From a virus (Duplodnaviria > Caudoviricetes), in IMG/VR virus record IMGVR_UViG_3300027892_001695, positions 1-30,333 of that record: a stretch of 30,333 bases of DNA. The stretch is one strand, 5' to 3'. This document shows positions 1,279 through 28,318 of the stretch, piece by piece. The notes beneath the pieces were generated by a model. That model had not been told where the DNA came from, did no database searches, and was given only the letters and a program-made list of their open reading frames with translations. The number at the start of each line of letters is the position of its first letter. Position 1 is the first letter of the stretch. Position numbers and translations under genes: made by a program.

Positions 1279-2024
1279 AAGATACATTTGTAATTACTAC
1301 TTTTAGTAAAACCAATTACGAAGAATATGCTGAAAAAACTGTTGCATCTTGGAAAAAGAATTGGCCTAGTAATTGGAAATTAGTTACTGTTGATGCCGAA
1401 GTTGATATTGGTGAAGATATAAAACTAGATTGTCCTGAAAAACATGCATGGATAGATTTGGTCAACACAACAGGAATAAAAAACACTCCACCCAAAGGGC
1501 ATTTAAAACAATGGGAAAAGTTTTGTCATAAATCGTGGGCACAAATTACTGCGTTTGAAGAATTAAAATCCGGTTATGTTATTTGGCTAGATGCCGATGT
1601 TCAATTTTTAAGCATGCCGCCTGTTGATTTGGTAGAAAAAGAAATAGCTGGAATGTTCAGTGGATATTTAGGAAGAGATCAATATATTCATAAAAGCAAA
1701 GACGGTATGCATTCAGCTCCAGAAACTGGAATTATATTTTATGATTTAGACCATCAATATGCAAACACGCATTTTTCTAAATTAAAAGAAGTTTATTCAG
1801 ATCTCAATCTATTCGAATATCCTGCATGGAGCGACGAAGTAATTTATGGGTTACTTAGAGATTTAAATCCAGCAGTATATAAATCAATGACTCCGATACA
1901 TTCAAGATTTCCGCTACCTATTAGCCATTTATCAAAATATTTCGAACACTGGATGGGCACAGGTAAAATGTATTTTAAAGATGTTCAGGGACTAAAATAT
2001 AAAAATAAAACCAAAACTTCTTAA
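1275..2024 (+). CDS. Putative GT-A glycosyltransferase (WxDAD family, paralogue 1)
   Basis: VITTFS..Y..YA..WP N-terminus, FCHK, WLDAD (DxD), ETG and terminal HWMG. Start moved to ATG 1275, which forms an ATGA overlap with the epimerase stop. Confidence 0.7.
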   Translation: MKDTFVITTFSKTNYEEYAEKTVASWKKNWPSNWKLVTVDAEVDIGEDIKLDCPEKHAWIDLVNTTGIKNTPPKGHLKQWEKFCHKSWAQITAFEELKSGYVIWLDADVQFLSMPPVDLVEKEIAGMFSGYLGRDQYIHKSKDGMHSAPETGIIFYDLDHQYANTHFSKLKEVYSDLNLFEYPAWSDEVIYGLLRDLNPAVYKSMTPIHSRFPLPISHLSKYFEHWMGTGKMYFKDVQGLKYKNKTKTS

Positions 2025-2662
2025 TTTTTAAATATATAGATTATTTGATATTCGTCAAATATTGGATATATTTTTTTATTTTGCAGGTACTGATATATTG
2101 CACGTCCTTTACCAGTTCTAGTTCCGTTAAGTAAAAAAGAATTGTCATCAATTGCAACAACACAATTTTTAAGATAAGGTTCGATTGCTAAAAACTCTTG
2201 TAAATGATGATTGGCGCTTGGTTTATCGTTTTGCCAATCAACATCGTAGCTATCTAAATAAAAAAGATCAACATTTTCCAAGTCACGTAACGATTTAAGC
2301 CAGTCCACGCTGTCACTACAAACAGATTTATAGTATCGATTATCTATAAACTGATTAGCAATATTGACTGCTTGTTGGGATATATCTACAGATCTTACAA
2401 ACCCGTCGTGTTGTTTGACTAGCTCAGAAAATAAAAATCCGCTGTTGCCATCTCTCCAATTTCCTGGATCTCTAACAGTTCCTGTTTCAATAATTTGAAA
2501 TTCTTTTTCTTTTATTTTAAAAAGTTCTTCAAAAATAATTGAAAACCCTTTACTTCGATCGTAAGGGTTTACTTTTAATCCTCGTTTTGGTCCGTTAATC
2601 TTTAAAGAAAGTTTTTCTTTGTATAATAAATTATAATTGTCTATCCAATTGGTCACATTCAT
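2021..2662 (-). CDS. Class I SAM-dependent methyltransferase-like protein
   Basis: IIETGT motif I, SVDIS acidic strand end, DSVDWL and DLFYLDS...H, VAIDD, matching small-molecule/sugar O-methyltransferases. Confidence 0.75.
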   Translation of the reverse strand: MNVTNWIDNYNLLYKEKLSLKINGPKRGLKVNPYDRSKGFSIIFEELFKIKEKEFQIIETGTVRDPGNWRDGNSGFLFSELVKQHDGFVRSVDISQQAVNIANQFIDNRYYKSVCSDSVDWLKSLRDLENVDLFYLDSYDVDWQNDKPSANHHLQEFLAIEPYLKNCVVAIDDNSFLLNGTRTGKGRAIYQYLQNKKIYPIFDEYQIIYIFKN

Positions 2663-2665
2663 TCC

Positions 2666-3130
2666 TTAATTATTAAAATCAATACGTTTCTTAGATTTTG
2701 CAGGAGATCCAGCGTACAGATATCCGCCTTCGTATACTCCCGGCAAAAGTACAGATCCGGCTCCTATTACAGCATAATCACCGATAGTGCATGGTCCCAT
2801 TATAACCGAATGGCTGGATATCCATACACCTTTACCGATAACTATATCACCGCCTTCTTTAGGATGTTGTTTTCTAATTTGGTCTTTTTGAGTAATATCG
2901 TGGGTTCCAGTTAGTACCGATACATGATTTCCAAAAAAAGTATGATCGCCTATAACTACGGTTCCTGAAGAGAGGTTAAAAAAAGTATTAACTAACTCGA
3001 CACTTGCCCCACAGCGTAATCGCTTTGTTGATCCCCAAAAGGATGGAGTTCTTAATAGTCGTTGACTAATTAAGGGAGTTAATAACTCGGCTAGTTTGTT
3101 CAAATCGTCATTTGAGAAATTATTTTGCAT
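2666..3130 (-). CDS. Hexapeptide-repeat (left-handed beta-helix) O-acyltransferase
   Basis: VVIGDHTFFG, TGTHD, IVIGKGVWI, CTIGDYAVIGAGSV and terminal AGSPAK, typical of maltose/galactoside acetyltransferase-like enzymes. Confidence 0.88.
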   Translation of the reverse strand: MQNNFSNDDLNKLAELLTPLISQRLLRTPSFWGSTKRLRCGASVELVNTFFNLSSGTVVIGDHTFFGNHVSVLTGTHDITQKDQIRKQHPKEGGDIVIGKGVWISSHSVIMGPCTIGDYAVIGAGSVLLPGVYEGGYLYAGSPAKSKKRIDFNN

Positions 3131-3142
3131 ACTAGTCCGGGA

Positions 3143-3760
3143 TTATTCCTTGTACCAAAGAAAGTCGACACCGTGTGTTAGTATACACGTATACCCCAAT
3201 TCTGACATATAATTATGATATGTATTATCGCCTCGTTGATAAGCATTATCTTCAAGACAAATATAAGAAATCCTCTGCTCCGTCCAGTCGATACATTTTA
3301 ATATAGGAAGCTCGGCTCCTTCTACATCGATCTGTAAATAATCAATGTGTAACGGAAGTTCTAAACTATTCCAAGATTTGCAGGAAAGTTTAATCACGTT
3401 GACCTGGGACGATGTATAGGTATCTACGGTCGATGAGCTACTTTCTAATAGTTTTCGATGTAACTCGTCGTATGATTCAACAATTCCGTTCCACTCTGGT
3501 TTGTCTGGAAAAAGAGCATAATCAACTTCTCCGTCATGGTCGTATACAGCAACATTTATACAACGACATTTTCTATTTTGAATTAGTTGTTCGTAACTTG
3601 GAGGAGACGCTTCGATGCAAACTCCGTCCCAACCTGCATTTTCTAAAATAATAGTGCTATTTTTCTTTCGACCATCCCATGCACCGATCTCTACATAAAA
3701 TCCAGGGTTTTCTTTCCAAATGGTATCGAAAAATATACGACTGAGTCTAGGTTCTTTCAT
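3143..3760 (-). CDS. FkbM-family methyltransferase
   Basis: GFYVEIGAWDG, GWDGVCIEA and IDYLQIDVEGAEL motifs; AAGGAAGG Shine-Dalgarno upstream. Confidence 0.88.
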   Translation of the reverse strand: MKEPRLSRIFFDTIWKENPGFYVEIGAWDGRKKNSTIILENAGWDGVCIEASPPSYEQLIQNRKCRCINVAVYDHDGEVDYALFPDKPEWNGIVESYDELHRKLLESSSSTVDTYTSSQVNVIKLSCKSWNSLELPLHIDYLQIDVEGAELPILKCIDWTEQRISYICLEDNAYQRGDNTYHNYMSELGYTCILTHGVDFLWYKE

Positions 3761-3778
3761 TGTGCCTTCCTTATAAAA

Positions 3779-3809
3779 TATTTATCACTATAATATACCC
3801 AGATAAATA
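3779..3809. promoter_or_regulatory. Back-to-back T4-late-like promoters (GATAAATA on each strand)
   Basis: Minus-strand ATAAATA at 3779-3785 upstream of the FkbM gene; plus-strand ATAAATA at 3803-3809, 5 nt before ATG 3815. Resembles the T4 late promoter TATAAATA. Confidence 0.6.
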
Positions 3810-3814
3810 TCTGC

Positions 3815-4576
3815 ATGAAAACAATTGTAATTGCAACAGGTGGATTTGACCCCATTCATTCAGGTCATATTAATTACGTTAAAGAGGCTAAAAAACTAGG
3901 CGATGTTTTGATCGTGGGAGCAAACTCCGATACCTGGTTACGCCGTAAAAAGGGGCAAGAGTTTATGCCCTGGGACGAACGTGCTAGTATTCTAAGTGCT
4001 ATTAAAGATGTAGACCGTGTTATCAACTTTGACGACTCAGACGGTAGTGCAAAAGACGCTATTAGAAAAGTAAGATCAATATATCCCAACGATAAAATTG
4101 TATTTGCCAACGGCGGCGATAGAACAGATAAAAATATTCCAGAGATGGATTTAGCCGACAATAATATTGAGTTTGCATTTGGTGTCGGCGGCTTTAATAA
4201 AGCAAATTCAAGTTCTTGGATTTTACAAGAATGGAAAGCTCCTAAGACTCTACGCCAGTGGGGCTACTATCGTGTGCTACATGAAGTGGCTGGTATGAAA
4301 GTTAAAGAGCTTACTGTGGAACCTGGTAAAAGTCTGAGTATGCAACGCCATCAATTACGTGCAGAGTACTGGATGGTTAGTGAAGGTGAGTGTGTAGTTA
4401 ACTCTATGATGCCGAACGGGTATGCATTGCCATCAAAGCATTTAACTAAACATCAAGAATTTAAAATTCCTGTCACCGAATGGCACCAATTAACTAATCC
4501 ATTTAAAGTTCCGTGCAAGATTGTAGAAATACAATACGGTGAACAATGCGTTGAAGAGGACATTGAACGAAAATGA
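3815..4576 (+). CDS. Cytidylyltransferase-like (HIGH) domain fused to a type II mannose-6-phosphate-isomerase-like cupin
   Basis: TGGFDPIHSGH (HxGH), NSD..RKKG and FANGGDR in the N-terminal half; WGYYRVL..KELTVEPGKSLSMQRH..RAEYW..G..WHQL.NP..IVEIQYG..EEDIER in the C-terminal half, as in the ManC C-terminal cupin. Confidence 0.85.
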   Translation: MKTIVIATGGFDPIHSGHINYVKEAKKLGDVLIVGANSDTWLRRKKGQEFMPWDERASILSAIKDVDRVINFDDSDGSAKDAIRKVRSIYPNDKIVFANGGDRTDKNIPEMDLADNNIEFAFGVGGFNKANSSSWILQEWKAPKTLRQWGYYRVLHEVAGMKVKELTVEPGKSLSMQRHQLRAEYWMVSEGECVVNSMMPNGYALPSKHLTKHQEFKIPVTEWHQLTNPFKVPCKIVEIQYGEQCVEEDIERK

Positions 4577-5385
4577 AATTAAACGATTGGATCTTCCTTA
4601 GTAAGGAAGGCAAAGATGAGTATATTAATATGTTTGCTATTGGAAGTGGCGGACGTGTTGTTTCTTCGGACGAGTTTAACTATGAAGATACTCCTGACCA
4701 CCCGATAGTAATGCGTGGTATTTTAAAACATAAAATTATGAAACGCTGCTGGTTAGGTGGCAGAGATTTTTATTATATGGATACCGGATATCTAGGAAAT
4801 CAAAAAAGTCCGTTAAACCCCATGGGCTGGAAACACTGGCACCGCGTGGTGAAAAATGATTTGCAACACGGCAACATAGTTCCAAGACCGGGTGATAGAT
4901 TTGAAAGATTACATATTCCAATAAGCAAGTGGAAGAAAGACGGAAGCAAAATTCTAATTGCTAAACCAGATGAAAAACCTTGTATTTTTTACGGAATCAA
5001 TCTTGACGAGTGGGTCAGCGAAACTATTGAGACAATAAAAAAATATACCGATCGACCTATTGAAGTTAGAGAACGGGCTAAAGAAAGAATTGCACGGGTA
5101 GAACATAATACACTAAAAGATGCACTTGATAGAGATGTATTTGCATTAGTCACATTCAACAGTGTTGCAGCAACAGAAGCTGTTCTGCATGGCATTCCCT
5201 CATTTACACTGGCACCATCAAACGCTGCCAGTCCAGTATGCTTACAAGATTTAAGTAAAATAGAAACACCTTATTATCCTGACAAAGATAAAGTGTATGC
5301 ATGGGCTTCCCATCTTGCCTATGGTCAATATCATATCGACGAATTAAAAAATGGTGACGCTTGGAGATTATTAAATGGATTATGA
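4573..5385 (+). CDS. Putative GT-B / capsule-synthesis-like glycosyltransferase (paralogue 1)
   Basis: YMDTGY, and C-terminal LVTFNSVAATEAVLHGIP...W..HLAYGQY...E...G shared with the 6826 and 10747 ORFs. Confidence 0.55.
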   Translation: MKLNDWIFLSKEGKDEYINMFAIGSGGRVVSSDEFNYEDTPDHPIVMRGILKHKIMKRCWLGGRDFYYMDTGYLGNQKSPLNPMGWKHWHRVVKNDLQHGNIVPRPGDRFERLHIPISKWKKDGSKILIAKPDEKPCIFYGINLDEWVSETIETIKKYTDRPIEVRERAKERIARVEHNTLKDALDRDVFALVTFNSVAATEAVLHGIPSFTLAPSNAASPVCLQDLSKIETPYYPDKDKVYAWASHLAYGQYHIDELKNGDAWRLLNGL

Positions 5386-6829
5386 TATGTTACCAATTTT
5401 TATTGGTTATGACAGCCGAGAGGATATTGCTTATCGAGTATGTGAATATTCTATATACAAACACACACCCGAAGCTGAAGTTAAACCCTTGAAACAAGAT
5501 GTACTACGTAAAGAAGGGCACTATACTAGAGCCAAAGATGAATTAAGTTCTACAGAATTTACCTTTACTAGATTCATGGTTCCATACTTGATGGAGTACA
5601 AAGGGTGGGCATTATTTTGTGATTGTGATTTTGTTTGGACTGAAGATATTAAACAGTTGTTTCAAAAAACAGATCCTAAATATGCAGTAATGGTAGTAAA
5701 GCACAATCATACGCCAAGTAGTACTACTAAGATGGACGGAGCTCAACAAACGCAGTATCCTAGAAAAAATTGGTCAAGTATGGTGCTATGGAATTGTGCG
5801 CACCCGCAAAATCAAACTCTAACACTTGATAAAGTTAACTCGGCCTCCGGTCAGTTCTTACATAGATTTGAATGGCTCAATGACGATGAAATTGGCGAAT
5901 TAGATATACGATATAATTTTTTAGTTGGGTGGAATAAAGAAAGTGCGGTCGGTAAACCAGTTGCGTATCATTGGACTGAAGGCGGCCCATGGTTTCCTGC
6001 CTACAAAGATTGTGAATATAAAGATGTCTGGTATCAATACCTAATAGATTATACACAAGAATTAGCATTAAACAATACACAAACCCATACCGCAATAACT
6101 TGGGTCACTTCTTTATCTAGATCTTACTATGAAGAAATTGCCAATCTAACAATGCCGTCGTGGGGAGACCTACCGGGCGATCTTGTTATTGTATGGGACG
6201 ATAAACCTGTCGATTTAGGATTTGGAAAAGTATTTAATTTTTGGAAGGATGTAGTGACTCCGGAAGATCCGTGGATTAAAGAAGGCATGGGTGGCACAAA
6301 AGCAGATCGTTTCTGGAAAAAGAGTCGGGTTCAAATATGGGCTGCAAGAAAATATAGAGGTTTAGTAGTTTGGATTGATGCTGACATTATGCTAACCAAA
6401 CGACTAACAAAATCAGAAGCTATTGAAAAATTGCATCCTAGACAGGATCTGTGGGGAACTTTAAACTGTGGCGATGACTTTCATGGAAAAGATTTTATCG
6501 ATACCGGTATTGTAGCATTTAATACAAGACATGAACATTTTGAAGAATTTATTAGAGATTATTCGTTGATGTGGTACGATGGTAGGATTTACAACTTGCC
6601 ACAGCCGTATGATCATTATGCTGTTACCGAGCTACGAAATAAATGGAAAATGAAAACATATGTCCCTCATTTTAGTACATGGACTACAACGCATTCTGAT
6701 ATTATAAATCGATATGCCATGGAAAATAGCTATCTCAAAGATAATTTTAAACATTATCTTGGAATTGATAATAAAAATCTCTTAAACGATTCTGCCGGTC
6801 GGCCAGTTAAAGAAAAGAAGAAAAAATGA
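5375..6829 (+). CDS. Two-domain glycosyltransferase: GT8/CDI-like N-terminal domain plus WxDAD-family C-terminal domain
   Basis: N-half: IFIGYDSRE, STEFTFTRF, ALFCDCDF, YPRKNWSS, HWTEGGPW. C-half: WVTSLS..YY, RFWKK, WIDAD, DTG, HYLG. Confidence 0.75.
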   Translation: MDYDMLPIFIGYDSREDIAYRVCEYSIYKHTPEAEVKPLKQDVLRKEGHYTRAKDELSSTEFTFTRFMVPYLMEYKGWALFCDCDFVWTEDIKQLFQKTDPKYAVMVVKHNHTPSSTTKMDGAQQTQYPRKNWSSMVLWNCAHPQNQTLTLDKVNSASGQFLHRFEWLNDDEIGELDIRYNFLVGWNKESAVGKPVAYHWTEGGPWFPAYKDCEYKDVWYQYLIDYTQELALNNTQTHTAITWVTSLSRSYYEEIANLTMPSWGDLPGDLVIVWDDKPVDLGFGKVFNFWKDVVTPEDPWIKEGMGGTKADRFWKKSRVQIWAARKYRGLVVWIDADIMLTKRLTKSEAIEKLHPRQDLWGTLNCGDDFHGKDFIDTGIVAFNTRHEHFEEFIRDYSLMWYDGRIYNLPQPYDHYAVTELRNKWKMKTYVPHFSTWTTTHSDIINRYAMENSYLKDNFKHYLGIDNKNLLNDSAGRPVKEKKKK

Positions 6830-7761
6830 AAATAGTTGCCTATCTAAGTTGTTTGCCTCCAAACAATAAAAATTCAGAGAAGGGAGAAATACTTTCTCGG
6901 TTTGCAACCGGAGTAGCAACTTCTGAAGATGAGGTAGTAATACATAACCAAATGACGTTAATAGAATGTGACGTTGCTGTCATGGTAGGCTGGGTGCATG
7001 AAAATTCAAAAAATACACCGCATTTGACATTTAGAAAAAATATTATAGACACACAACATGTTACAGGAAAGCGTATTTTACTAGCAGATAGTAATTTATT
7101 TTTGTATAAAAATACAACAAATCCCGGACACTATTTGCGTTACAGTTTTGATGGAGTCTTTCCAAACACCGGCAATTATTGTGACAAAGATATTGACCCC
7201 AGTCGCTGGACAAAACTTTCTCATAATTTAAATGTTCCTTTAAAAGAATACAGAAATACCGGCGGCCATATTTTATTATGTTTACAGCGTAATGGTGGAT
7301 GGAGTATGGGGTCATATGATGTTGTGGACTGGACTGCAAAAATTGTCCGCGAATTAAAATTACATACTGACAGAGAAATTGTTATTCGTGCTCATCCTGG
7401 AGACAGGGGATCACGAGATTATCTAAGCCCTAACAACCTAATGAAAAAAATTGGATTGTTAAAAGGAGTTCGATTATCTAAACCAGAAACATCATTAGTT
7501 GATGATTTAAAAAACTGTTGGGCTGTGGTAAATCATAATTCAAGCCCAGGTGTTGGTGCTGCTATTGAAGGGTATCCTGTATTTGTTACAGATCCTGAAA
7601 GAAGTCAATGCGCAGAAATTGCAAATTTAGATCTTGCACAAATAGAAAATCCCAATCTTCCAGATAGACAAAAATGGGCCGAACGGTTAGCAATGTTCCA
7701 TTGGAACTTTGAAGAAATAACAAATGGAGATGCCTGGCGGCATATGAGGAAGTACGTATGA
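6826..7761 (+). CDS. Putative GT-B / capsule-synthesis-like glycosyltransferase (paralogue 2)
   Basis: ILLCLQ, IRAHPGD, VVNHNSSPGVGAAIEGYP and R..W..RLAMFHW..EEI..G motifs. Confidence 0.55.
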   Translation: MKIVAYLSCLPPNNKNSEKGEILSRFATGVATSEDEVVIHNQMTLIECDVAVMVGWVHENSKNTPHLTFRKNIIDTQHVTGKRILLADSNLFLYKNTTNPGHYLRYSFDGVFPNTGNYCDKDIDPSRWTKLSHNLNVPLKEYRNTGGHILLCLQRNGGWSMGSYDVVDWTAKIVRELKLHTDREIVIRAHPGDRGSRDYLSPNNLMKKIGLLKGVRLSKPETSLVDDLKNCWAVVNHNSSPGVGAAIEGYPVFVTDPERSQCAEIANLDLAQIENPNLPDRQKWAERLAMFHWNFEEITNGDAWRHMRKYV

Positions 7762-8472
7762 AAATTGAAATCATTACAAGTTTTAATGAACGATATTATA
7801 ATGGCATTGGTAAAGAATGTGTAGAAACATGGTTAAAATACTGGCCAACTAATTTAAAACTAACCTGTTACGTAGAAGAATTTCAATTGCCTGAACAAGA
7901 TAGAATAAAACAAATATCTTTTACAGAACTAGGCGTCGACTACGAAAATTTTCAAAAAGACCCAAAGTACAAAAATCGAGTAAAGATTTTTTCTAAAAAA
8001 GCATACAGTATAATTCATGCTTTTAAAAATTCAACTGCTGACAGAATTATTTGGATAGATGCTGATGTACTAACGTTAAAAGACGTACCAATTGAGATTA
8101 TAAAAAATTTATGTCCAACTGATACATTGTTGACATACATGAGAGTATGGCATCATCTAGACAAAGCAAATTTACAAAGTTCTTTAGTGCCTAGCGCCGA
8201 AAGTGGAGTTTTTGCAGTTAATACTGAACATCAAAGCTTTCATCAGTTTGCAGATAGATACGCAGAGTATTATAATAAAAGACTTGATAAGAATATTAGA
8301 AGATTTTACGACGGCGAAGTGTTAGGTGCAGTTGCAAAAGAATTTGAAACATCAAATAAAATTATAGATTTGTGCCAAGATTTCAAAAAACCCTATCGTA
8401 CTCCTATAGGCCACACAATATTAGCACCATACCTTCACCATTATAAAGCAAAAGCTGCTAAGTCAGATTTTT

Positions 8473-8486
<14 letters not shown>
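7758..8486 (+). CDS. Putative GT-A glycosyltransferase (WxDAD family)
   Basis: IITSFNERYY..G...W..YWP, FSKKA, WIDAD, ESG, FYDGEV and YLHHYK. Confidence 0.7.
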
Positions 8487-10301
<1,815 letters not shown>

Positions 10302-10306
10302 TTATC

Positions 10307-10708
10307 CTATTGTTTAAATTTCCATAATTGATGTCGCTTTGCTAAATCAACTAATTCGTAATGTGCTTGATCCACTATCCAGCGGGTAATTTTTTTATCA
10401 AGATGTTCGCCAGACCAAATCATGAGTGTTGGTTTGTGGTGTTGAAATATTGATCGAAATTCGGGCAAATGGCGCAGTCCAGCGGGTTCTACATATATTA
10501 GACCCGATTCAGGCATTAGACCAATGTCGCTTATTTGTTCTCGATAAACAATATTTTTTTTCTTAACTAAAGGCACGGTTACAGAAAATGCAAAAACCGT
10601 TCCAAACGCTGCCGACAACGGGATTAACATGTCGTCAGACGCTTCGACAGCAATAGCTGTTTGCGTAGACCTAGCAAATTTCTTAAGTTTTTTAGTAACG
10701 TCACTCAT
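10307..10708 (-). CDS. Hypothetical protein
   Basis: 133-aa ORF filling the gap directly upstream of gmd on the same strand; no motif recognised. Confidence 0.6.
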   Translation of the reverse strand: MSDVTKKLKKFARSTQTAIAVEASDDMLIPLSAAFGTVFAFSVTVPLVKKKNIVYREQISDIGLMPESGLIYVEPAGLRHLPEFRSIFQHHKPTLMIWSGEHLDKKITRWIVDQAHYELVDLAKRHQLWKFKQ

Positions 10709-10746
10709 GTTTTCAATTAAATACTGTGTTATTTATAATCCATAAA

Positions 10747-11580
10747 ATGCGACTAAAAATTTATCGACAATTCGGCGCTCTCAACAGCCAACCTGTATTT
10801 GATGCATTTTCTGCTGGAGTGCTTGCATTGGGTCACGAAATAGTCGATACTAACGAAGATGTTGCAGTTATATGGTCAGTCCTTTGGCAAGGGCGTATGT
10901 TAAAGAATCAAATTGTATATCGAAATTGTATAACTCAAAATGTTCCAATAATGATTATTGAAGTAGGAAATTTATTACGAGGAGTTACCTGGAGATTGAG
11001 CTTGGGAAATATCAACGGAAATGGTATTTTTGCCAATCAAGAAAATTTAGATAGAGATAGACCAGAAAAATTAAAAATTAAATTAAAACCCATCATTGAA
11101 AGTCGATCAAACGGTATTTTAATAGCTAGTCAGCATAAACATAGCCTGCAGTGGGAAGGAATGCCGACAATGGAAAAATGGATAGAAAAAACTGTTAAAA
11201 AAATTAGACAATATTCGGACAGAAAAATTATTGTAAGACCACATCCAAGATCTCCAATACAAATAACTTTGTTAGATGGAGTAGAAATAGAAACTCCAAA
11301 AAAATTGCCGGACAGCTATGACAATTTTGACATTGACTATAATTATCATTGTGTTATAAATCATAATAGTGGGCCTGCTGTTCAAGCAGCCATTCACGGT
11401 ACCCCAATAATTTGCGGTGAAAGTAGTCTGGCTCATTCAATTAGTGGAACTATAGAGAATTTAGAAAATATTTGTCTACCTCCACGAGAAGAGTGGTTTT
11501 TAAAATTAACTCATACAGAGTGGACTCTACAAGAATTGAGATTAGGCATCCCACAATCGCGACTAATTGCAACTATATAG
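10747..11580 (+). CDS. Putative GT-B / capsule-synthesis-like glycosyltransferase (paralogue 3)
   Basis: IIEVG, ILIASQ, VRPHP, VINHNSGPAVQAAIHGTP and REEW..L.HTEW..EL..G. ATG 10747 preferred to GTG 10726; TAAATA at 10718-10723 upstream. Confidence 0.55.
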   Translation: MRLKIYRQFGALNSQPVFDAFSAGVLALGHEIVDTNEDVAVIWSVLWQGRMLKNQIVYRNCITQNVPIMIIEVGNLLRGVTWRLSLGNINGNGIFANQENLDRDRPEKLKIKLKPIIESRSNGILIASQHKHSLQWEGMPTMEKWIEKTVKKIRQYSDRKIIVRPHPRSPIQITLLDGVEIETPKKLPDSYDNFDIDYNYHCVINHNSGPAVQAAIHGTPIICGESSLAHSISGTIENLENICLPPREEWFLKLTHTEWTLQELRLGIPQSRLIATI

Positions 11581-15114: not shown

Positions 15115-15400
15115 ACCAGGAGCATCTTACGTGTACGAGCGAGAGCAAGGCACCGTGTATGCTCATGAAACGGGAACTGATCCTAGTACTAGACAACCAA
15201 TTGGGTGGAATTACGATCCTGGAGAATCGCCCCGATTCGATGCTCGAACGGATGACAGAAGACCGTTGCACGAACACATAATGGAAAACAAGTTATGGGG
15301 TGATATTCGACAAGCTGCAAAAACAAATATCACTTTACAAGATGCCCTAGAACGTGTTAAAATATTGTATCACTTGAGCAAAGAAAATGGGACAAAATAA
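15101..15400 (+). CDS. Hypothetical protein (99 aa)
   Basis: ATG 15101 (MGNLKPG) avoids the long overlap with the cupin gene that the 14969 start would need. Confidence 0.6.
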   Translation: MGNLKPGASYVYEREQGTVYAHETGTDPSTRQPIGWNYDPGESPRFDARTDDRRPLHEHIMENKLWGDIRQAAKTNITLQDALERVKILYHLSKENGTK

Positions 15401-15866
15401 ACACGTAGACCTTTTTAAGGATATGATTCCGGCAGTAGACTTGGGTCTTATGGACCTATGGGATGCTGTTACTGAGGAAGGTCGAAAAGAAATTAAAGGC
15501 GACTTTTGGAATCTTAATCGTTACATCAGTAATGTTAAATCTAATAATAAAGAGTTGCAAGAACACTTCCTGTTAACTACAAACGAATTTTATAACAAGC
15601 ACTGGAATGACATTCAAAAACATCCCAAGTTAGTTTGGCAAACTTTATGTATGTGTAGTCATGAAAGTAAAAAAACTCAATTTCACGAATGGATTCCTTT
15701 AAAGAAACAAAAGAATAAAAAGGTTGAATTTTTGTCGGAACTATTTCCTAATATGAAAATAGCAGATGTTGAAACATTAGCTACTGTAACTACTGACAAA
15801 GAAATTAAGGAATACTGTGCGACACTTGGTTGGGATAAAAAGCAAGTCAATGCAATTAAATTTTAA
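15387..15866 (+). CDS. Probable clamp-loader small subunit (T4 gp62-like)
   Basis: FWNLNRYIS...TNEFYN...FHEWI..KK followed by a short helical C-terminus resembles the gp62 pattern; located in the replication block. Confidence 0.5.
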   Translation: MGQNKHVDLFKDMIPAVDLGLMDLWDAVTEEGRKEIKGDFWNLNRYISNVKSNNKELQEHFLLTTNEFYNKHWNDIQKHPKLVWQTLCMCSHESKKTQFHEWIPLKKQKNKKVEFLSELFPNMKIADVETLATVTTDKEIKEYCATLGWDKKQVNAIKF

Positions 15867-16533
15867 ATGCGAACATTGTGAAAAATTATTTGCTAAAGAA
15901 AAAACTTTAGTAGTTCACATCTGCGAACAAAAACGTAGACATTTAAGCAAAAATGAAAAGCATGTTCAAATGGGGCTGTTAACTTTCCAGCGGTTTTATG
16001 AGCTCACACAAAAAGCAAAGCAACCAAAAACTTTTGAGGAATTTGCATCAAGTAGTTTTTATACAGCGTTTGTTAAGTTTGGTAGCTTCATGGTTAATAC
16101 CGCTCCGATCTATCCAGAAAGATTTATTGACTTTGTTGTTAAGAGTGGAGTTAAATTAGATCACTGGTGCAGAGACGAGTTATACGACAAATACATCAGC
16201 GAACTAATTAAAATAGAACCTGCAGATGGCGCTGTACAACGAACGATCCAGTCTATGATGAATTGGGCAGATAACAACTCTGCACCGTGGGAACACTATT
16301 TTGCTTATGTTAATTTAAACAGAGCTACACACGATATTAAAGAAGGTTTAATAAGTCCTTGGATCTTGTTAAATACCAAAGCAGGAAAAGAAATGCTTCA
16401 GCGCATGAATGACGAACAATTAGAAATTGTTGGTCCGGTAATTGACCCACAATTCTGGATGCGTAGATTTAAATCTTTACCGGCAGATATTGAACTTATT
16501 AAAGACGTCATCAAGGAGGCGAAAATATTATAA
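15850..16533 (+). CDS. Hypothetical protein with N-terminal C2HC zinc finger
   Basis: FKCEHCEKLFAKEKTLVVHICE (C-x2-C-x3-F-x5-L-x2-H-x-C); ATG at 15850. Confidence 0.65.
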   Translation: MQLNFKCEHCEKLFAKEKTLVVHICEQKRRHLSKNEKHVQMGLLTFQRFYELTQKAKQPKTFEEFASSSFYTAFVKFGSFMVNTAPIYPERFIDFVVKSGVKLDHWCRDELYDKYISELIKIEPADGAVQRTIQSMMNWADNNSAPWEHYFAYVNLNRATHDIKEGLISPWILLNTKAGKEMLQRMNDEQLEIVGPVIDPQFWMRRFKSLPADIELIKDVIKEAKIL

Positions 16534-16757
16534 TGGCCAAACGACCAGATCCTGAGATTCAAGAAGAAGAATTAAAAGACAACGAAGAATTTATTTCTAG
16601 AGATGACATTGATATTGAAGTAGTAGTTGCAGAAGATACTAACGATGTATATGTAAAATTTTCTGGTTTTGATGATGATGAAGATGCAGCAGAATATGCA
16701 GAATTTTTAGCAGAAACATTGCCATTACTGTTATTTGAAACTACGAGGTTACAATAA
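16533..16757 (+). CDS. Small highly acidic protein
   Basis: 74 aa with 24 D/E against 6 K/R; TAATG overlaps at both ends. Confidence 0.65.
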   Translation: MAKRPDPEIQEEELKDNEEFISRDDIDIEVVVAEDTNDVYVKFSGFDDDEDAAEYAEFLAETLPLLLFETTRLQ

Positions 16758-17332
16758 TGCCAGACATCGATATTGACTTTGTTGATAGAGAAGCCGCACT
16801 TAAATTATTTAAATATACAACTGCAAGTCGTCTTGAAAATAATAATCTAGTGAAACACAATACCGGAGTCTATCTACACGATGTTCCAGTAGATCCGATC
16901 ACTGGATTATGTTCTATCCCATATGACCAAGCAGAGGATAAGTTTTTTAAAATAGACTTTCTTAATGTTGGGATTTATAAAGGTGTTCGAGATGAGGCAC
17001 ACTTAACACAACTAATGGGGACTGAACCACTATGGGATCTACTAGAACAAGACGACTTTAGCAACTTGCTATTTCATGTGAATGGACATGGGTCTATCTT
17101 AAAACAAACAAAGCCGCAGAGTGTGGAACAATTAGCGGCAGTACTTGCAATGATTCGTCCCGCCAAGCGTTACTTGATAGGAAAAGGATGGAACGAAATC
17201 AATTCAGAGGTGTGGGTAAAGCCTATAAACGATGACTATTTCTTTAAGAAAAGTCATGCTACTGCATATGCTGTAGCCATTGTAGTACAAATGAATTTAA
17301 TTTGCGAAAATATTAGTTATGGGTTTAGTTAA
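16757..17332 (+). CDS. Miniature DnaE-like (C-family) DNA polymerase catalytic core, probably one part of a split enzyme
   Basis: PDIDIDF, KHNTGVY, FKIDFLNV, AMIRP and FKKSHATAYA match the DnaE motifs PDxDxDF, HAGGV, KxDFLGL, ALxRPG and FNKSHxxAY in the same order. Confidence 0.82.
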   Translation: MPDIDIDFVDREAALKLFKYTTASRLENNNLVKHNTGVYLHDVPVDPITGLCSIPYDQAEDKFFKIDFLNVGIYKGVRDEAHLTQLMGTEPLWDLLEQDDFSNLLFHVNGHGSILKQTKPQSVEQLAAVLAMIRPAKRYLIGKGWNEINSEVWVKPINDDYFFKKSHATAYAVAIVVQMNLICENISYGFS

Positions 17333-18536: not shown

Positions 18537-19553
18537 ATGGCCCTAGTCGTAGACACTTTTCGTAAACTAATACCTCCCCGTGCTAAGTCGAGCCCTAGCG
18601 GATGGATCAGTTTTAATGCCCCATGTTGCAGTCATCGTGGACATAGTTCAGATACTCGTAAACGTGGCGGGCTTATGGTTGGCGATTCAATTGTATTCAA
18701 TTGCTTTAATTGTAAATTTTCTACAGGGTGGAAGCCTGGGTCGTCACTAACTACTAAATTTAAAAATTTGTGTAAGTGGTTAGGAGCATCAGACGACGAT
18801 ATCAAGCACATGATATTCGATGCTATGAAAACCGAATCCGTTGACTATGTGCCTACAGAATCAAAAGAACTTGTAATATTCACGAAAAAAGAATTGCCGC
18901 CAGGCTCATTGCCTATTAAAGAATGGGCTAATCGATCATCATCATTATTAACTGAACTAGGTCCAGTATTAGAATATCTTGTTGATAGAGGGTTTGATCC
19001 AGCTGCCAATAATTTTTATTGGAGTCCTGAACCAGGATATTCTGATAGAGTTATCATTCCGTTTTTCTATAACGGAGAAATTGTTGGCAATACTGCAAGA
19101 AAAGTTCGTAACGGCAAACCAAAATATTTGTCAGATCAACATCCGTTTTTTGTGTTCAATGTTGACGAGCAAACAGAAGAAAAAAAATATGTATTTGTTT
19201 GTGAAGGCCCGTTTGATGCATTATCAATCGGAGGTGTTGCACTTCTCACTAATGAAATCTCTTCGCAGCAGGCCCGCATAATTAATAATATAGGATGTGA
19301 AGTTATTGTGATCCCAGATCAAGATATTCCAGGACTGGTATTGATTGATCAAGCAAAAGAATTAGGATGGAAGGTAGCATTCCCCACGTGGGACAATGAT
19401 ACTAAAGATTGTGCAGATGCTGTACAAAAATATGGAAAATTATTTGTTATTGTGGATGCTATAAAAACAGCCACTAACAATCCTGCTAAAATAGAAATTG
19501 AAAAAAGAAAACTTCGAGATAAGTTTGAATATATGGAGAATCAACATGGTTAA
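18537..19553 (+). CDS. DNA primase (T4 gp61/DnaG-like)
   Basis: N-terminal Zn-binding region (APCC...FNCFNC), RVIIPF..G.IVG.TAR, PKYL, TOPRIM VCEGPFDA and DQD, terminal KD..D. Confidence 0.9.
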   Translation: MALVVDTFRKLIPPRAKSSPSGWISFNAPCCSHRGHSSDTRKRGGLMVGDSIVFNCFNCKFSTGWKPGSSLTTKFKNLCKWLGASDDDIKHMIFDAMKTESVDYVPTESKELVIFTKKELPPGSLPIKEWANRSSSLLTELGPVLEYLVDRGFDPAANNFYWSPEPGYSDRVIIPFFYNGEIVGNTARKVRNGKPKYLSDQHPFFVFNVDEQTEEKKYVFVCEGPFDALSIGGVALLTNEISSQQARIINNIGCEVIVIPDQDIPGLVLIDQAKELGWKVAFPTWDNDTKDCADAVQKYGKLFVIVDAIKTATNNPAKIEIEKRKLRDKFEYMENQHG

Positions 19554-19662
19554 AAAAATACTAAATTTTATTTTATATCCCTGGCACAAGTATCAAGAAC
19601 ACAAGGCGTGGAAAAAACGTTTAGAAGAATTACGTAAACGTGATCCATTTATCTACAAATGA
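19546..19662 (+). CDS. 38-aa peptide MVKKILNFILYPWHKYQEHKAWKKRLEELRKRDPFIYK (absent from the ORF track)
   Basis: GGAG SD at 19535-19538, ATG 19546; exactly fills the primase-carbamoyltransferase gap and ends in an ATGA overlap. Confidence 0.7.
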   Translation: MVKKILNFILYPWHKYQEHKAWKKRLEELRKRDPFIYK

Positions 19663-20600
19663 TTGAGTGGGGGGTGAATGCCCTTAATCACGGTTCTAGT
19701 CTAGCTGTATTCAAGGACGGTAGTCTATGGTCCAACCAAGCGGGCTCTTCGGACGAGTTAGACAGCAAAATAATTACCGATGCCCTGCATGTTGGAGCAC
19801 CGGATCGTATCTTTTGGTACGAACGTCCCTGGATAAAGAAGGCAAGACAACTACGTGCAGGCCAATGGCATCGTGTCTTAGACATGTCCGTACTTCCACG
19901 CAAATACATGAAAGCGCAACATTATGCTCCGATCACTTATACTCCGCATCATGCTAGCCATGCAGCCGCAGGCTACTATACCAGTCCTTTTAATCATTGT
20001 GCTATTGTGGTACTCGACGCCATAGGTGAGTTTGAATGTGCTACCATATGGGAAGGCAAGCAAGGAGAAATGCGCAAAGTGTGGAGTAGAAGCTATCCAA
20101 ATAGTTTAGGATTATTTTACAGTGCATTTACACACGCTCTCGGAATGACTCCTATTCAAGATGAATATCAGTTACAACAAATGTCTGAAAAAGGCAATCC
20201 TAAAATTTTTTATTACAAAGTAAAGAAATATTTTACAGGTCTTTTAGAATTGAATTATAATTTTCACAAAGGTGTTAATGATCAAAAATTCTACATAGAT
20301 AGCATAGAAGACGAATGCAATCTTGCTGCCGCTGTTCAATTAGTGTTTGAAGAACAAATTGCATTGATTATGAATAAGGCAAAAGAACTAACTAATTCAG
20401 ATTGTTTAGTATACATGGGTGGATGTGCAATGAACAGCAAGGCAAATAAAAAAATTGTAGAGCCCATGTTTGAGTATCGTTGGTCATTGCCTAATCCAGG
20501 AGACCCTAGCAGTAGTATTGGAGCAGTATTGTATCACACTAAACAAAGAGAGCAAAAATACAACTTTGGTGTTGCAAAACATATAGAGATTCGTGTATAA
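19659..20600 (+). CDS. Carbamoyltransferase (NodU/CmcH family), N-terminal Kae1-like domain only
   Basis: HHASHAAAGYYTSPF, VLDAIGE, SLGLFYSAFT, MGGCAMNSKAN and PNPGDPSSSIGA; the ORF ends where the C-terminal YrdC-like domain should begin. Confidence 0.85.
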   Translation: MIEWGVNALNHGSSLAVFKDGSLWSNQAGSSDELDSKIITDALHVGAPDRIFWYERPWIKKARQLRAGQWHRVLDMSVLPRKYMKAQHYAPITYTPHHASHAAAGYYTSPFNHCAIVVLDAIGEFECATIWEGKQGEMRKVWSRSYPNSLGLFYSAFTHALGMTPIQDEYQLQQMSEKGNPKIFYYKVKKYFTGLLELNYNFHKGVNDQKFYIDSIEDECNLAAAVQLVFEEQIALIMNKAKELTNSDCLVYMGGCAMNSKANKKIVEPMFEYRWSLPNPGDPSSSIGAVLYHTKQREQKYNFGVAKHIEIRV

Positions 20601-20601
20601 T
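20572..20601 (+). promoter_or_regulatory. sigma70-type promoter
   Basis: TTGCAA (20572-20577), 18 nt, TATAAT (20596-20601); ATG at 20608. Confidence 0.65.
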
Positions 20602-20607
20602 AAAAGT

Positions 20608-21255
20608 ATGCAGAATCACAAGCACAATAAAAAATATCAAGTAGGGGATCAGTGGTTAATTGACACGCAGTACACTAGATACAAAGAGTTTCTTCCATTC
20701 TTAGATCGTGATTCAAGTGAAGACTATGGTCGTGAAACTGTAGCCCAACATGCTAGTCAGTACCCGTTATGGCACGATCCGGATCAAAGTGTAATGTTGG
20801 CATACCCAAAGAAGTACGGTGGAGACTTTGAAGCACATCCGTTGTGGCATACAGTAGCAGATGGTGCTTATAAGTGGACTAACCGAAAATTAAAAGAGAA
20901 TGGGATTGAATCTGAGATCCGACCAGTAATTAGTTGGTATATTGATTACAAAGAAGGTGGTTGGCAACCAATGCACACTCATTCTAAGAACTGTGTAACA
21001 CAGATTATCTACATGGATGCACAGACTCATAGTGTTAAAGTTAACGAAGCCAATGTACCAGAATTTGATGGTAAGGAAGCACAATGGGGTTCAATGTTTG
21101 CATTAATGGCCAGTAAGGATGAAACAAAATACGTGTCTTTCATGAATTGGCCTGGAAGATGTGTTTTAATGAGAGGCGATATATTCCACGGTGTGTATCC
21201 TGTTAAATCAGTACCACGTAGAAGTATTATTATTGATTATATAATTTTAACATGA
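20608..21255 (+). CDS. 2OG-Fe(II) oxygenase-like protein
   Basis: SWYIDYKEGGWQPMHTH, PGRCVL, HGVYP and RRSIIID fit the DSBH oxygenase pattern; start moved to ATG 20608. Confidence 0.7.
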   Translation: MQNHKHNKKYQVGDQWLIDTQYTRYKEFLPFLDRDSSEDYGRETVAQHASQYPLWHDPDQSVMLAYPKKYGGDFEAHPLWHTVADGAYKWTNRKLKENGIESEIRPVISWYIDYKEGGWQPMHTHSKNCVTQIIYMDAQTHSVKVNEANVPEFDGKEAQWGSMFALMASKDETKYVSFMNWPGRCVLMRGDIFHGVYPVKSVPRRSIIIDYIILT

Positions 21256-22733
21256 TAAAAAATTACGATTACGAAGTACAGAAATTATATCTTGAACTTA
21301 TGCTGGCAGACGCAGAAGTATTTGTTCGCTGTCAAGGTATTTTTGATCACACATTATTTGATCGCAAACTGCAAGATGCGGCAGAGTTTCTACATGAATA
21401 TGCCAAAGGGTATAATGTATTGCCAGACTATGAAATGGTCAATGCCACCTGCAGAGTTGACCTCAAACGTCCAGAGGACCTCAAAGAAGGACATATGGAT
21501 TGGTTTATGGATGAGTTTGAGAAGTTTACTCAACACAAGGCTCTTGAACGTGCAATTATACAATCAGCCGATCTATTAGAAAAACATGACTACGGTGCAG
21601 TAGAAGTATTGATCAAAGAAGCAGTACAGATTGGACTTGCTCGAGACATGGGCACAGATTACTTTGCTGATCCTCGTGGCCGATTGATGGGCATCAAGGA
21701 CAAGAACGGACAGGTAAGTACAGGTTGGCCGACAATGGATAAAAGATTGTTCGGTGGATTCAATCGAGGAGAACTGAATATCTTTGCAGGTGGATCTGGT
21801 GCAGGTAAGAGTTTGTTCTTGGCTAACTTGGGTGTGAACTTTGCACTTGCAGGATTGAACGTGGTTTATCTAACACTGGAACTTTCAGAAGCACTAGTTA
21901 GTATGCGTATTGATGCAATGCTAACAGGAATAGCAACCAAAGACATCTTCAAGGACCTAGATGATGTTGAAATGAAAGTCAAAATCATTGGCAAGAAATC
22001 TGGACTGTTACAGGTCAAGTACATGCCAAGTGGCAAGACTGCCAATGATATCCGTGCATATCTAAAAGAATATGAAATCAAAGTAGGTAAGAAAGTAGAT
22101 GTACTTCTAGTAGACTACTTAGACTTGTTGATGCCACTCAGCAAGAAGATTAGCCCAGCAGACTTGTTTATCAAAGACAAATATGTATCGGAAGAATTGC
22201 GTAACCTAGCAGTGGAAAAGAACTGTGTGTTCGTTACTGCGGCACAGTTAAATCGTGGTGCTGTTGAAGAAGTGGAGTTTGACCACAGTCATATCTCAGG
22301 TGGCTTGAGCAAGATTCAAACTGCAGATAATGTGTTTGGTATCTTTACCAGCAGGGCTATGCGTGAACGTGGACGCTATCAATTACAGTTGATGAAGACT
22401 CGTAGCTCAAGCGGAGTAGGCATGAAGATTGATCTTGAATTTAATCTTGAAAGTCTTAAGATTTCAGACTTGCCAGAGGACGAACAAGAACACAGTGGAG
22501 CAACATCTAGGGGTAGTAGTTCGATCATCGAATCTATTAAAAATAGATCAACAGTTGTAAAATCCGACGACCGGGCACAACCCAAAGAAGGATTTGACCC
22601 ATTTAATCCAACGCCTAATGCAGGTAGAGGATTAGACCCATCGCAAGGCACAGGCGTTGGAAAAGTTCGTGCTAACGTAGAATCCACAAAATTACGTGAA
22701 ATTTTAAATTCTATGGGTAATGATGAAGAGTAA
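21252..22733 (+). CDS. Replicative DNA helicase (T4 gp41/DnaB-like, SF4)
   Basis: STGW..MD..L.GGF.RGEL, GGSGAGKS (Walker A), TLELSE, VDYLDL (Walker B), TAAQLNR and MKTR. Confidence 0.93.
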   Translation: MIKNYDYEVQKLYLELMLADAEVFVRCQGIFDHTLFDRKLQDAAEFLHEYAKGYNVLPDYEMVNATCRVDLKRPEDLKEGHMDWFMDEFEKFTQHKALERAIIQSADLLEKHDYGAVEVLIKEAVQIGLARDMGTDYFADPRGRLMGIKDKNGQVSTGWPTMDKRLFGGFNRGELNIFAGGSGAGKSLFLANLGVNFALAGLNVVYLTLELSEALVSMRIDAMLTGIATKDIFKDLDDVEMKVKIIGKKSGLLQVKYMPSGKTANDIRAYLKEYEIKVGKKVDVLLVDYLDLLMPLSKKISPADLFIKDKYVSEELRNLAVEKNCVFVTAAQLNRGAVEEVEFDHSHISGGLSKIQTADNVFGIFTSRAMRERGRYQLQLMKTRSSSGVGMKIDLEFNLESLKISDLPEDEQEHSGATSRGSSSIIESIKNRSTVVKSDDRAQPKEGFDPFNPTPNAGRGLDPSQGTGVGKVRANVESTKLREILNSMGNDEE

Positions 22734-22962: not shown

Positions 22963-23673
22963 ATGCGCCTAAGAGAATTACAAGAACGATCAGATATAAT
23001 TACAGTTAATCGCCGTCTTAATCCCAAGATATGGGACGGTGATTCGCTCGACCCAGCAGTTGCACAAAAGCTCAAAGAAATTGCTGACGCATTTCAAGAG
23101 TTTATAGGCATTGATCTAGATGTAGTAGATTACACAATTACTGGATCAAACGCCAATTATACTTGGACTGATCACAGCGACCTAGATCTGCATCTTATTA
23201 TTCAAGGAGAGGTAGGAGAAGCGGCTCGCGAACTGTTCAATGCCAAAAAGGCACTCTGGGCAGAGCAACACAATATTACTATCAAGGGATTGCCTGTTGA
23301 ATGTTATGTTCAGGGCAAAGAAGAAGAACACCACAGTACCGGAGTGTATAGCATAGCTGACAATCGATGGCTGGTTGAACCTAAGAAAATAAAACCAGAA
23401 GTAGATGACAGTGCTGTGGAAGCTAAAAAAGATTCAGTCATCCATGATATCGAAACTGCCCTGTTAAGCAAGGATCTTAACAAGTTAAGAGCTGTTAAAG
23501 AAAAAATTACCAAGATGCGCAAAGCAGGATTGGAACGTGCAGGTGAGTGGTCGGTGGAAAACCTAGTTTTCAAAATACTAAGAAATTTGGGTCTTATTGA
23601 TGAAATTGCAGATAAGATTCGCGAACTAGAAGATCAAGAACTGAGTCTAGAACAAACTCAAGTGTTAATTTAG
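22963..23673 (+). CDS. Pol-beta superfamily nucleotidyltransferase
   Basis: ITGSNANY...SDLDLH (GS plus DxD) and third acidic residue in PVECY; CTAAATA 4 nt before the ATG. Confidence 0.8.
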   Translation: MRLRELQERSDIITVNRRLNPKIWDGDSLDPAVAQKLKEIADAFQEFIGIDLDVVDYTITGSNANYTWTDHSDLDLHLIIQGEVGEAARELFNAKKALWAEQHNITIKGLPVECYVQGKEEEHHSTGVYSIADNRWLVEPKKIKPEVDDSAVEAKKDSVIHDIETALLSKDLNKLRAVKEKITKMRKAGLERAGEWSVENLVFKILRNLGLIDEIADKIRELEDQELSLEQTQVLI

Positions 23674-24239
23674 TCTTTGTAAACAGTATTAAAACTAATA
23701 GTAATTCTGTTATCAGTTGAATTAACATCAGTGCTATGTTCTAACCAACTGGGAAATATTATTAACTTTCCGGGAACACAATCAATATCAAAATGGTTGG
23801 TACTATTAAAGTTTGGTTCTTGAACAAAATCAAACATCTTAAATGCTGCTATTGGACTGTGTAGAGTCAGTGGCACACTGCCCGGATCTGCATCAACATA
23901 AAATGCTCCAGACACAATGCTCATTTCGTGCCGGTGATTGTCAACTCGTTGACCCTTGCCCATCTTGTTAAACCAATTGCTAGAAATTGTAACTGGTTTA
24001 ATCCCCATGTTTGTAATATAACTATCAACACAGTCTTGTATACGCTGTTTAAATCCAGCAAGTTCTGCAATGTCTAAAAATTGTCGTTCATACAGATTAT
24101 AACTACTTTCTGCGCCGTGAAGCAGTCCGTGTGGTTTAGTTTTGTGAACTGCAATCAATTGTTTAATTAGGGGCAGGTCTGGATCTGTTGATAGATCGTA
24201 TTCTTGTATCACAGTGGGAAATAAATTAGCTTGTCTCAT
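23670..24239 (-). CDS. 2OG-Fe(II) oxygenase (TIGR02466-like)
   Basis: LFPTVI, WFN, HRH..SIVSGAFY, PGKLIIFPSWLEH and RITISFN. Confidence 0.88.
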   Translation of the reverse strand: MRQANLFPTVIQEYDLSTDPDLPLIKQLIAVHKTKPHGLLHGAESSYNLYERQFLDIAELAGFKQRIQDCVDSYITNMGIKPVTISSNWFNKMGKGQRVDNHRHEMSIVSGAFYVDADPGSVPLTLHSPIAAFKMFDFVQEPNFNSTNHFDIDCVPGKLIIFPSWLEHSTDVNSTDNRITISFNTVYKD

Positions 24240-27634: not shown

Positions 27635-28318
27635 TTAAAACTCAATCCAACCGTTGACCAAGTACTTGACGCCACTGCGTGGAGGATTTCCACGATGTGT
27701 GTGCGTGTAGTTGCCAGGGTAGATCAGTAAGGTGCCCATACGACTTGGCTCTACTCGGGGATAGTACAAGAACTCTGTTTCTCCACCCGCTGCCACGTTG
27801 TTCAAAAACAACTGCACATTCATGAGTCGGCTGCAACTGGTACGTCCTTCCTGTTCCCAATGCCACACATGAAATCCACCGCCTATTTCAGTTTTTTGTA
27901 TTTTGATTTCATAAATGCCCTGCTGTGCTTGTGTGTCTAGAGCAGAGTACTTTTCAGTGTAGATTCTATAGCATTCCCACACCACATCTAGAAAGTGATT
28001 TTGCATAGAAGGTACGCCCACAATGCCAATATCGTTAACACCTGCTGACACAGCACGACTGGTGTTAAAGGCCACTGTGTCTTTTAGATGCGCAGGCACA
28101 CCTTCCACTCGCTGGCGACTGCGTCCAAAGCCTAGAGCGTTCATGCTCTCAAAGTATTCAATAGCTGATGAGCAGTAGTCCTCTGTAAAGGCATGTTCAA
28201 ACTTGCCCACAAAGTCTGAGAACTCTACTGTCATACTAGGATTTAATATACTAGTGGGATCCGGGGGTGTCCACGTATTGGCCAAATTGGGTGTGGCTGC
28301 GGGCTTGAATTGCGTCAT
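27635..28318 (-). CDS. 2OG-Fe(II) oxygenase (prolyl-4-hydroxylase-like phage family)
   Basis: KIQKT..GGGFHVWHWE, FLNNV..GGETEF, YPGNYTHTHRGNPP and KY. Confidence 0.88.
   Translation of the reverse strand: MTQFKPAATPNLANTWTPPDPTSILNPSMTVEFSDFVGKFEHAFTEDYCSSAIEYFESMNALGFGRSRQRVEGVPAHLKDTVAFNTSRAVSAGVNDIGIVGVPSMQNHFLDVVWECYRIYTEKYSALDTQAQQGIYEIKIQKTEIGGGFHVWHWEQEGRTSCSRLMNVQLFLNNVAAGGETEFLYYPRVEPSRMGTLLIYPGNYTHTHRGNPPRSGVKYLVNGWIEF

Follow-up and report, generated by a model that had tools for sequence, protein, structure and literature searches.

In bacterial C-family polymerases of the DnaE type, the whole active-site region is carried on one chain together with the PHP and (HhH)2 domains, and the catalytic residues are D401, D403 and D555 (and D405), according to the available sections of PMC3919608. 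A reduced phage form has been in print since 2021, when Iyer et al. described, from sequence, a split minimal Pol III alpha in group 2.2 jumbo phages; the accessible text assigns Mg2+ and template binding to the C-terminal unit and NTP binding to the N-terminal unit, and already contains a guess at an accessory role (PMC7824862). The same main text, as available, is without fused forms, a change at R390 or a nested ORF. The Atu_ph07 paper, in its accessible part, names the N-terminal half alone, as gp316 (PMC6102473). The family is not treated in the available portions of PMC3919608, PMC12926913, PMC11646218, PMC9224347, PMC12641269, PMC12592400 and PMC8373059, and the literature covered, largely outside subscription journals, contained no report of a measured activity of the split enzyme.

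The gene analysed here lies in a stretch of viral DNA of 30,333 bases, which constitutes the whole of its record (IMGVR_UViG_3300027892_001695) and is termed the window below. It encodes a protein, hereafter mini-DnaE, that almost certainly belongs to the family of Iyer et al. as its C-terminal unit. The two have in common the subdomain content, the phage group and, in relatives, a distant N-terminal gene and a family B replicase; no trait sets the present copy apart. The novelty implied by the first-pass annotation of this DNA is therefore unsupported, since both the split arrangement and the accessory-role guess had been published, and as a discovery the gene matters little. What it poses is a question: the job of the smallest C-family core beside primase and helicase in thousands of phages with a family B replicase.

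Family membership, reading frame and fold

Mini-DnaE matches PHROG 11778, "DNA polymerase" (E 2.9e-66), and 96 phage records, 95 of them across at least 80% of its length. The latter include Atu_ph07 (56% identity), GAP32 (41%), Phosso, PA5oct/Paride and RaK2. Among 8000 candidates scored in a protein search, at least 7949 were relatives (clusters at 90% identity), and a search at the 50%-cluster level gave 417. Direct comparisons gave little: the sole match in a Pfam scan was PF17657 (E 0.036), phmmer against the PDB returned no match, and E. coli DnaE, taken by itself, was matched weakly in pairwise comparison, both by BLAST (E 0.005) and by HH comparison (probability 13%). The C-family assignment therefore rests on the PHROG match, the fold searches and the order of the motifs. 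Three cellular matches, all on MAG contigs (13 of the 64 parts of the genome collection were scanned), are probably misbinned phage rather than cellular genes. The gene order around mini-DnaE is common to Atu_ph07, GAP32, Paride and Phosso, a group 2.2-type context. Both halves also occur in Alishewanella phage Slickus01 (OQ508957.1), which at 141 kb is below jumbo size; there they lie about 11 kb apart, with the gene order unchanged.

The positions of the gene, its motifs and its neighbours are given in Table 1. On re-reading, the ORF is bounded by stops and without an internal stop, its ATG overlaps the TAA of a 74-aa upstream ORF (TAATG), and the five DnaE motifs occur in order, all as originally annotated. 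Contigs from all four DNA runs compared (lake water, freshwater and crustacean metagenomes, one sharing a study with a possible source run) extend across the whole gene and show 0, 0, 0 and 1 differences, on which grounds an assembly error was rejected. RNA-run contigs cover the gene in part, a kind of coverage that cannot show transcription.

Table 1. Coordinates of mini-DnaE, its motifs and other features of the window
Feature	Position	Strand	Remarks
Sugar-modification cluster	313-11580		11 kb
159-aa and 238-aa upstream genes	15387-16533	+	
Upstream neighbour, 238 aa	15817..16533	+	phrog_11058; N-terminal C2H2-like zinc finger
C-terminal (aspartate-bearing) unit of split minimal Pol III alpha	16757..17332	+	191 aa
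PDIDIDF strand, residues 2-8	16760..16780	+	D3, D5 = E. coli D401, D403; D7 = D405
KHNTGVY strand, residues 33-39	16853..16873	+	Comes after thumb deletion
KIDFL, residues 65-69	16949..16963	+	K65 = K553; D67 = D555, third catalytic aspartate
Nested +2-frame ORF	17032..17235	+	TAG at 17059-17061 breaks the frame; open in most close relatives
AMIRPAKR (AMIRP, residues 131-135)	17147..17170	+	K137 family-conserved, proline in E. coli; fingers deletion comes next
FKKSHATAYA helix, residues 163-172	17243..17272	+	H167 = H760; K164 family-conserved, N757 in E. coli
Convergent neighbour, ~120 aa	17329..17700	-	phrog_11637
DNA primase	18537..19553	+	62/62 loci with enough flank
Carbamoyltransferase and 2OG-Fe(II) oxygenase	19659-21255	+	Between primase and DnaB; only the N-terminal domain of the carbamoyltransferase matched
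DnaB-like replicative helicase	21252..22733	+	48/48 loci with enough flank
Second Pol-beta-type nucleotidyltransferase-like gene, 236 aa	22963-23673	+	Just past DnaB; PF01909, E 0.0017 (below cut-off); phrog_36119
Further 2OG-Fe(II) oxygenases	23670-24239, 27635-28318		

The catalytic spacing claimed earlier was confirmed against E. coli DnaE: D5 and D67 are 62 aa apart, compared with 152 aa between D403 and D555. Much of this difference is accounted for between D5 and H34 (29 aa, against 108 aa for D403-H511 in E. coli), a stretch that corresponds to the thumb. A second large deletion, overlooked in the first-pass annotation, affects the outer fingers; R134 and H167 are separated by 33 aa, against 120 aa between R640 and H760, and R709 and R710 are removed with it. 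The small size of mini-DnaE is thus due to the thumb and outer-fingers deletions. The PHP, HhH, clamp and OB parts are lost as well, and the reported absence of the PHP, clamp-binding and OB domains and of the RGS-bearing palm segment holds for the protein in full.

The structure of the protein modelled alone has a pLDDT of 92.4. The best 18 Foldseek matches are all DnaE or PolC, as are the best seven VIA matches, the next unrelated one having a Z of 4.3. The best VIA match is PolC (3f2b; Z 9.6, rmsd 3.4, 189 residues aligned); E. coli DnaE (5m1s) follows the model with gaps over the range 401-783 (Z 7.2, rmsd 4.2, 188 aligned). By this modelling, the predicted fold of mini-DnaE is that of E. 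coli DnaE 401-783 from which the thumb and the greater part of the fingers are missing, in agreement with the thumbless, trimmed core proposed earlier; the superposition places the predicted fold among the C-family polymerases, with a Pol-beta-like palm present.

Conservation of the active site was assessed in two sets of sequences. All 82 aligned sequences have D3, D5 and D7, and 81 of these also have K65 and D67. Of 93 diverse representatives (those near full length among 150 listed, at approximately 35% overall identity), 91 have D3 and D5, and none of the 93 lacks K65 or D67. H167 occurs in 82 of the 82 and 89 of the 93, and K137 in 81 and 82, respectively. K65 corresponds to K553, which contacts the primer end; past the DxD strand, D10 and R11 form a pair, each found in 74 of the 82. 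The catalytic aspartates are thus conserved among the homologues.

The length of the gene is equally constant. Among 171 loci with a match to the C-terminal half, seven are cut by the end of the locus; in 163 of the remaining 164, the distance from the first aspartate to the stop is 180-202 aa, and no in-frame upstream extension is present in relatives. The median dN/dS, from the 414 unsaturated pairs out of 9730, is 0.125 (quartiles 0.086-0.19), and the gene is under purifying selection. These observations bear on whether mini-DnaE is a decaying remnant of a full-length dnaE. A single complete locus, L268:971-1384, could be cited for decay: an in-frame internal deletion of about 50 residues removes K65 and D67, by natural loss or misassembly. 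Set against this are the constant length of all other complete loci, the low dN/dS and the thousands of relatives at the 90% level noted above; the homologues are neither full-length nor variably eroded. Given the conserved length, the aspartate triad and the dN/dS, we conclude that the gene is not a pseudogene, for which the probability is negligible. A frameshifted dnaE was rejected on the same grounds, together with the matching contigs of the DNA runs.

Within the gene, the +2 frame from the ATG at 17032 was compared in 82 unique sequences of no less than 60% identity. In 73 of them it stays open over 55 codons or more, where synonymous resampling predicts 0.62; of 58 more distant sequences, only two have it open. 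Third-position T before stop-forming codons is at 3% inside the nested region, compared with 35% before other codons and 48% outside the region, and an SD-like motif precedes the nested ORF in 73 of the 82. In the window, a TAG ends the frame after nine codons and the upstream GGAG reads GGGG. The break is confirmed by independent contigs, and in two further loci (L014 and L012) the frame is broken at the same or the next codon. Rescue by TAG recoding is unlikely, as TAG ends four of 38 window genes checked (one with wrong coordinates); no tRNA was found in the window. The nested gene looks dispensable and lost in this genome.

The 238-aa upstream neighbour is found near mini-DnaE in 74 of the 74 IMG/VR loci with enough flank, as is the 159-aa gene (74/74), which may resemble a clamp-loader small subunit; the convergent neighbour is present in 69 of 69 and a UvsW-like helicase in 49 of 68. 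Atlas searches gave no name for the 238-aa gene or the convergent one. The three flanking genes are candidates for further subunits; gene order shows association, not function. Elsewhere in the window, the sugar-modification cluster includes an epimerase, a GDP-mannose dehydratase, a cytidylyltransferase-isomerase fusion, an FkbM methyltransferase, a hexapeptide acyltransferase and glycosyltransferase-like genes.

The partner half and natural fusions

The need for a separately encoded RGS-bearing partner, proposed in the first-pass annotation, is borne out by a gene in relatives, by a modelled complex and by natural fusions. Read in all six frames, the window shows no DnaE-type RGS segment, and no family B polymerase was seen among the part of the window ORFs scanned. 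Both were found in all five complete relatives searched: a stand-alone RGS gene (PF07733) of 155-177 aa, separated by 34 to 224 kb from the gene of the C-half, and a family B polymerase (PF00136), so that both of the searches suggested earlier succeeded outside the record itself. Across relatives the distance between the halves ranges from 11 to 224 kb. The partner was also found in four of 20 partial contigs (16-79% completeness), namely in four of the six that are at least 55% complete and in none of the 14 smaller ones; the 79%-complete contig (G003) has no match. In GAP32 and Atu_ph07 the clamp loader is encoded close to the partner gene. By genus of cultured phages, the counts for the two halves are 34 and 34 for Escherichia, 11 and 11 for Pseudomonas, 8 and 8 for Salmonella, 8 and 8 for Erwinia, and 11 and 10 for Klebsiella.

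The two proteins divide the palm between them. Over its residues 55-155, the partner is superposable on E. coli 278-395 (5m1s; Z 9.6, rmsd 2.7, 99 aligned); it stops at about N393, and the C-half starts at M399. Partners end 31-37 residues past the R of the RGS motif, and the C-half has two residues ahead of its first aspartate (up to 18 in relatives). GxGRGS is invariant in all 67 partners. A complex of mini-DnaE with the partner of a different genome (G004, in which the C-half is 72% identical) was modelled with a score of 0.90, against 0.00 for the best of three controls, at a contact agreement between runs of at least 95% and a partner pLDDT no lower than 86. Of 157 solved complexes, 116 reach the mark applied, as do two of 215 mismatched pairs. 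In the model, C-half residues 2-9 contact partner residues 114-128, and the DIDID strand lies on the WGVGRGS segment. Resemblance to solved DnaE structures may account for the score.

Three metagenome proteins of 375-376 aa (P0208, P0276 and P0277) contain both halves in the DnaE order, the others being 78-81% identical to the first. Their RGS-to-first-aspartate spacing is 42 aa, compared with 39 in E. coli. In a quick tree of 114 C-halves the fusions make up a single clade (support 100) within a larger one (support 96) to which eight stand-alone C-halves also belong, and this nesting suggests secondary re-fusion. The fusions come from contigs of 2.4-5.9 kb; viral and metagenome contigs yielded no DNA context for them, and it is solely the equal linker length of three diverged proteins that excludes read-through of adjacent genes. 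The sole longer form obtained with the window protein as query, of 350 aa, looks chimeric and was rejected; that query missed the true fusions. A different division is seen in Cellulophaga phage phi19:2 (KC821621.1), where a large phage DnaE is annotated as two adjacent genes; the break falls after the RGS segment and differs from the mini-DnaE split.

The partner also carries a change of the active site. In the E. coli structure cited in the accessible text of PMC4374717, R390 contacts dATP alongside R362, R709 and R710. By ungapped mapping between conserved flanks, the R390 position is E in 59 and D in eight of the 67 unique sequences of the partner; E is likewise found in all three fusions and in Slickus01. 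The arginine is kept in E. coli, in Taq and in all six parsed larger phage DnaEs (of seven, with L276 left out). R396 falls in the gap between the halves.

Possible activities

The reading to which we assign about an even chance is that of a distributive accessory polymerase at the fork, extending primers or filling short gaps. The C-half would bind the partner of about 160 aa, whose WGVGRGS strand is predicted to pack on the DIDID strand and so rebuild one active site. Since the steric-gate histidine is kept (H760 being the steric gate of E. coli DnaE, as stated in the available text of PMC8485763), the heterodimer would use dNTPs rather than rNTPs, and at the triphosphate K137 and K164 may stand in for the arginines that are gone. 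As it is without domains that grip DNA, it would presumably be held on DNA by the primase and helicase machinery, where primase-made RNA primers could be extended, or short gaps filled, before hand-off; a short-patch, non-processive polymerase would thus work beside the family B replicase. De novo RNA priming is the least likely of the activities listed, because a primase is encoded 1.2 kb downstream and the steric-gate histidine is retained. Some observations speak against an accessory polymerase: the R390 position is acidic in all partners, R396 lies in the gap and R709/R710 are deleted, and the partner and family B gene of this phage itself were not seen. In T4-type replisomes the family B enzyme alone extends primers, and a primer-extension role is therefore not obviously needed.

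Another reading is an active nucleotidyltransferase that is not templated, adding dNMPs to DNA ends or to a protein or small-molecule acceptor, or handling an unusual nucleotide. Nothing is left of the duplex-gripping domains or the outer fingers, a rewiring of the triphosphate pocket runs through the whole family (an acid for R390, conserved K137 and K164), and the remainder is close to a bare Pol-beta-fold core; retention of K65, the D10-R11 pair and H167, and the fixed place of the gene within the replication cluster, tell against it, and we regard it as a tentative possibility. Equally tentative is its more specific form, a rewired enzyme with the metal triad, RGS loop and steric gate kept, the triphosphate arginine turned to acid and the index finger dropped, that would be, instead of Pol III chemistry in reduced form, a template-independent or non-DNA-acceptor deoxynucleotidyltransferase fixed in the replisome of a very large group of phages. 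Somewhat less probable is a heterodimer that binds metal and nucleotide without polymerising, and serves in pyrophosphorolytic trimming or unblocking of 3' ends, in dNTP sensing or as a replisome scaffold. With an acid in place of R390, the triphosphate could bind less readily, and three of the listed dNTP-contacting arginine positions are changed or gone; the invariance of GxGRGS in the partners argues the other way, the conserved lysines could compensate, and a pure scaffold is not expected to keep three aspartates at such low overall identity. It is very improbable that the 191-aa protein acts alone or borrows the missing part from the host DnaE. Its confidently predicted lone fold (pLDDT 92) and the remoteness of the partner gene in relatives might suggest so, but the RGS loop is missing from the C-half, the genus counts of the two halves nearly match among cultured phages, and natural fusions exist.

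If active, mini-DnaE would show which parts are the minimum for a polymerase of the Pol III type; should the rewired reading be true, it would be the first member of the C family other than a templated polymerase. Activity is made easier to test by the fusions and by the rewired triphosphate site: the natural 375-aa fusions provide single-chain versions for the rewired reading, and the R390-to-acid change yields a specific prediction.

Comparison with known polymerases

Mini-DnaE and its partner share with bacterial DnaE and PolC the Pol-beta-like palm, the equivalents of D401, D403, D405 and D555, of K553 and of H760, and, in the partner, the RGS motif. Unlike these enzymes, they form two chains of about 350 aa in total, without the PHP, thumb, outer fingers, HhH, clamp motif and OB, and they differ from bacterial DnaE in the replacement of R390 by E or D and the absence of R396 and R709/R710. 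In cyanobacteria, DnaE is encoded by two distant dnaE genes whose products bear intein pieces and are joined by splicing into an enzyme of full length. The mini-DnaE halves are likewise encoded by two distant genes; they lack intein pieces, however, and end and begin directly in palm sequence.

Like the role proposed for mini-DnaE, that of B. subtilis DnaE is as a C-family primer extender ahead of a processive replicase: it extends DnaG primers and then hands off to PolC, according to the accessible text of PMC3664799. The B. subtilis enzyme is, however, full-length and single-chain and hands off to PolC, whereas the replicase beside mini-DnaE would be of family B. Pol X of African swine fever virus resembles mini-DnaE as a viral nucleotidyltransferase fold with one small subdomain, and serves in repair; it is a single chain of the X family, as described in the available part of PMC11646218, whereas the fold searches place mini-DnaE with the C family.
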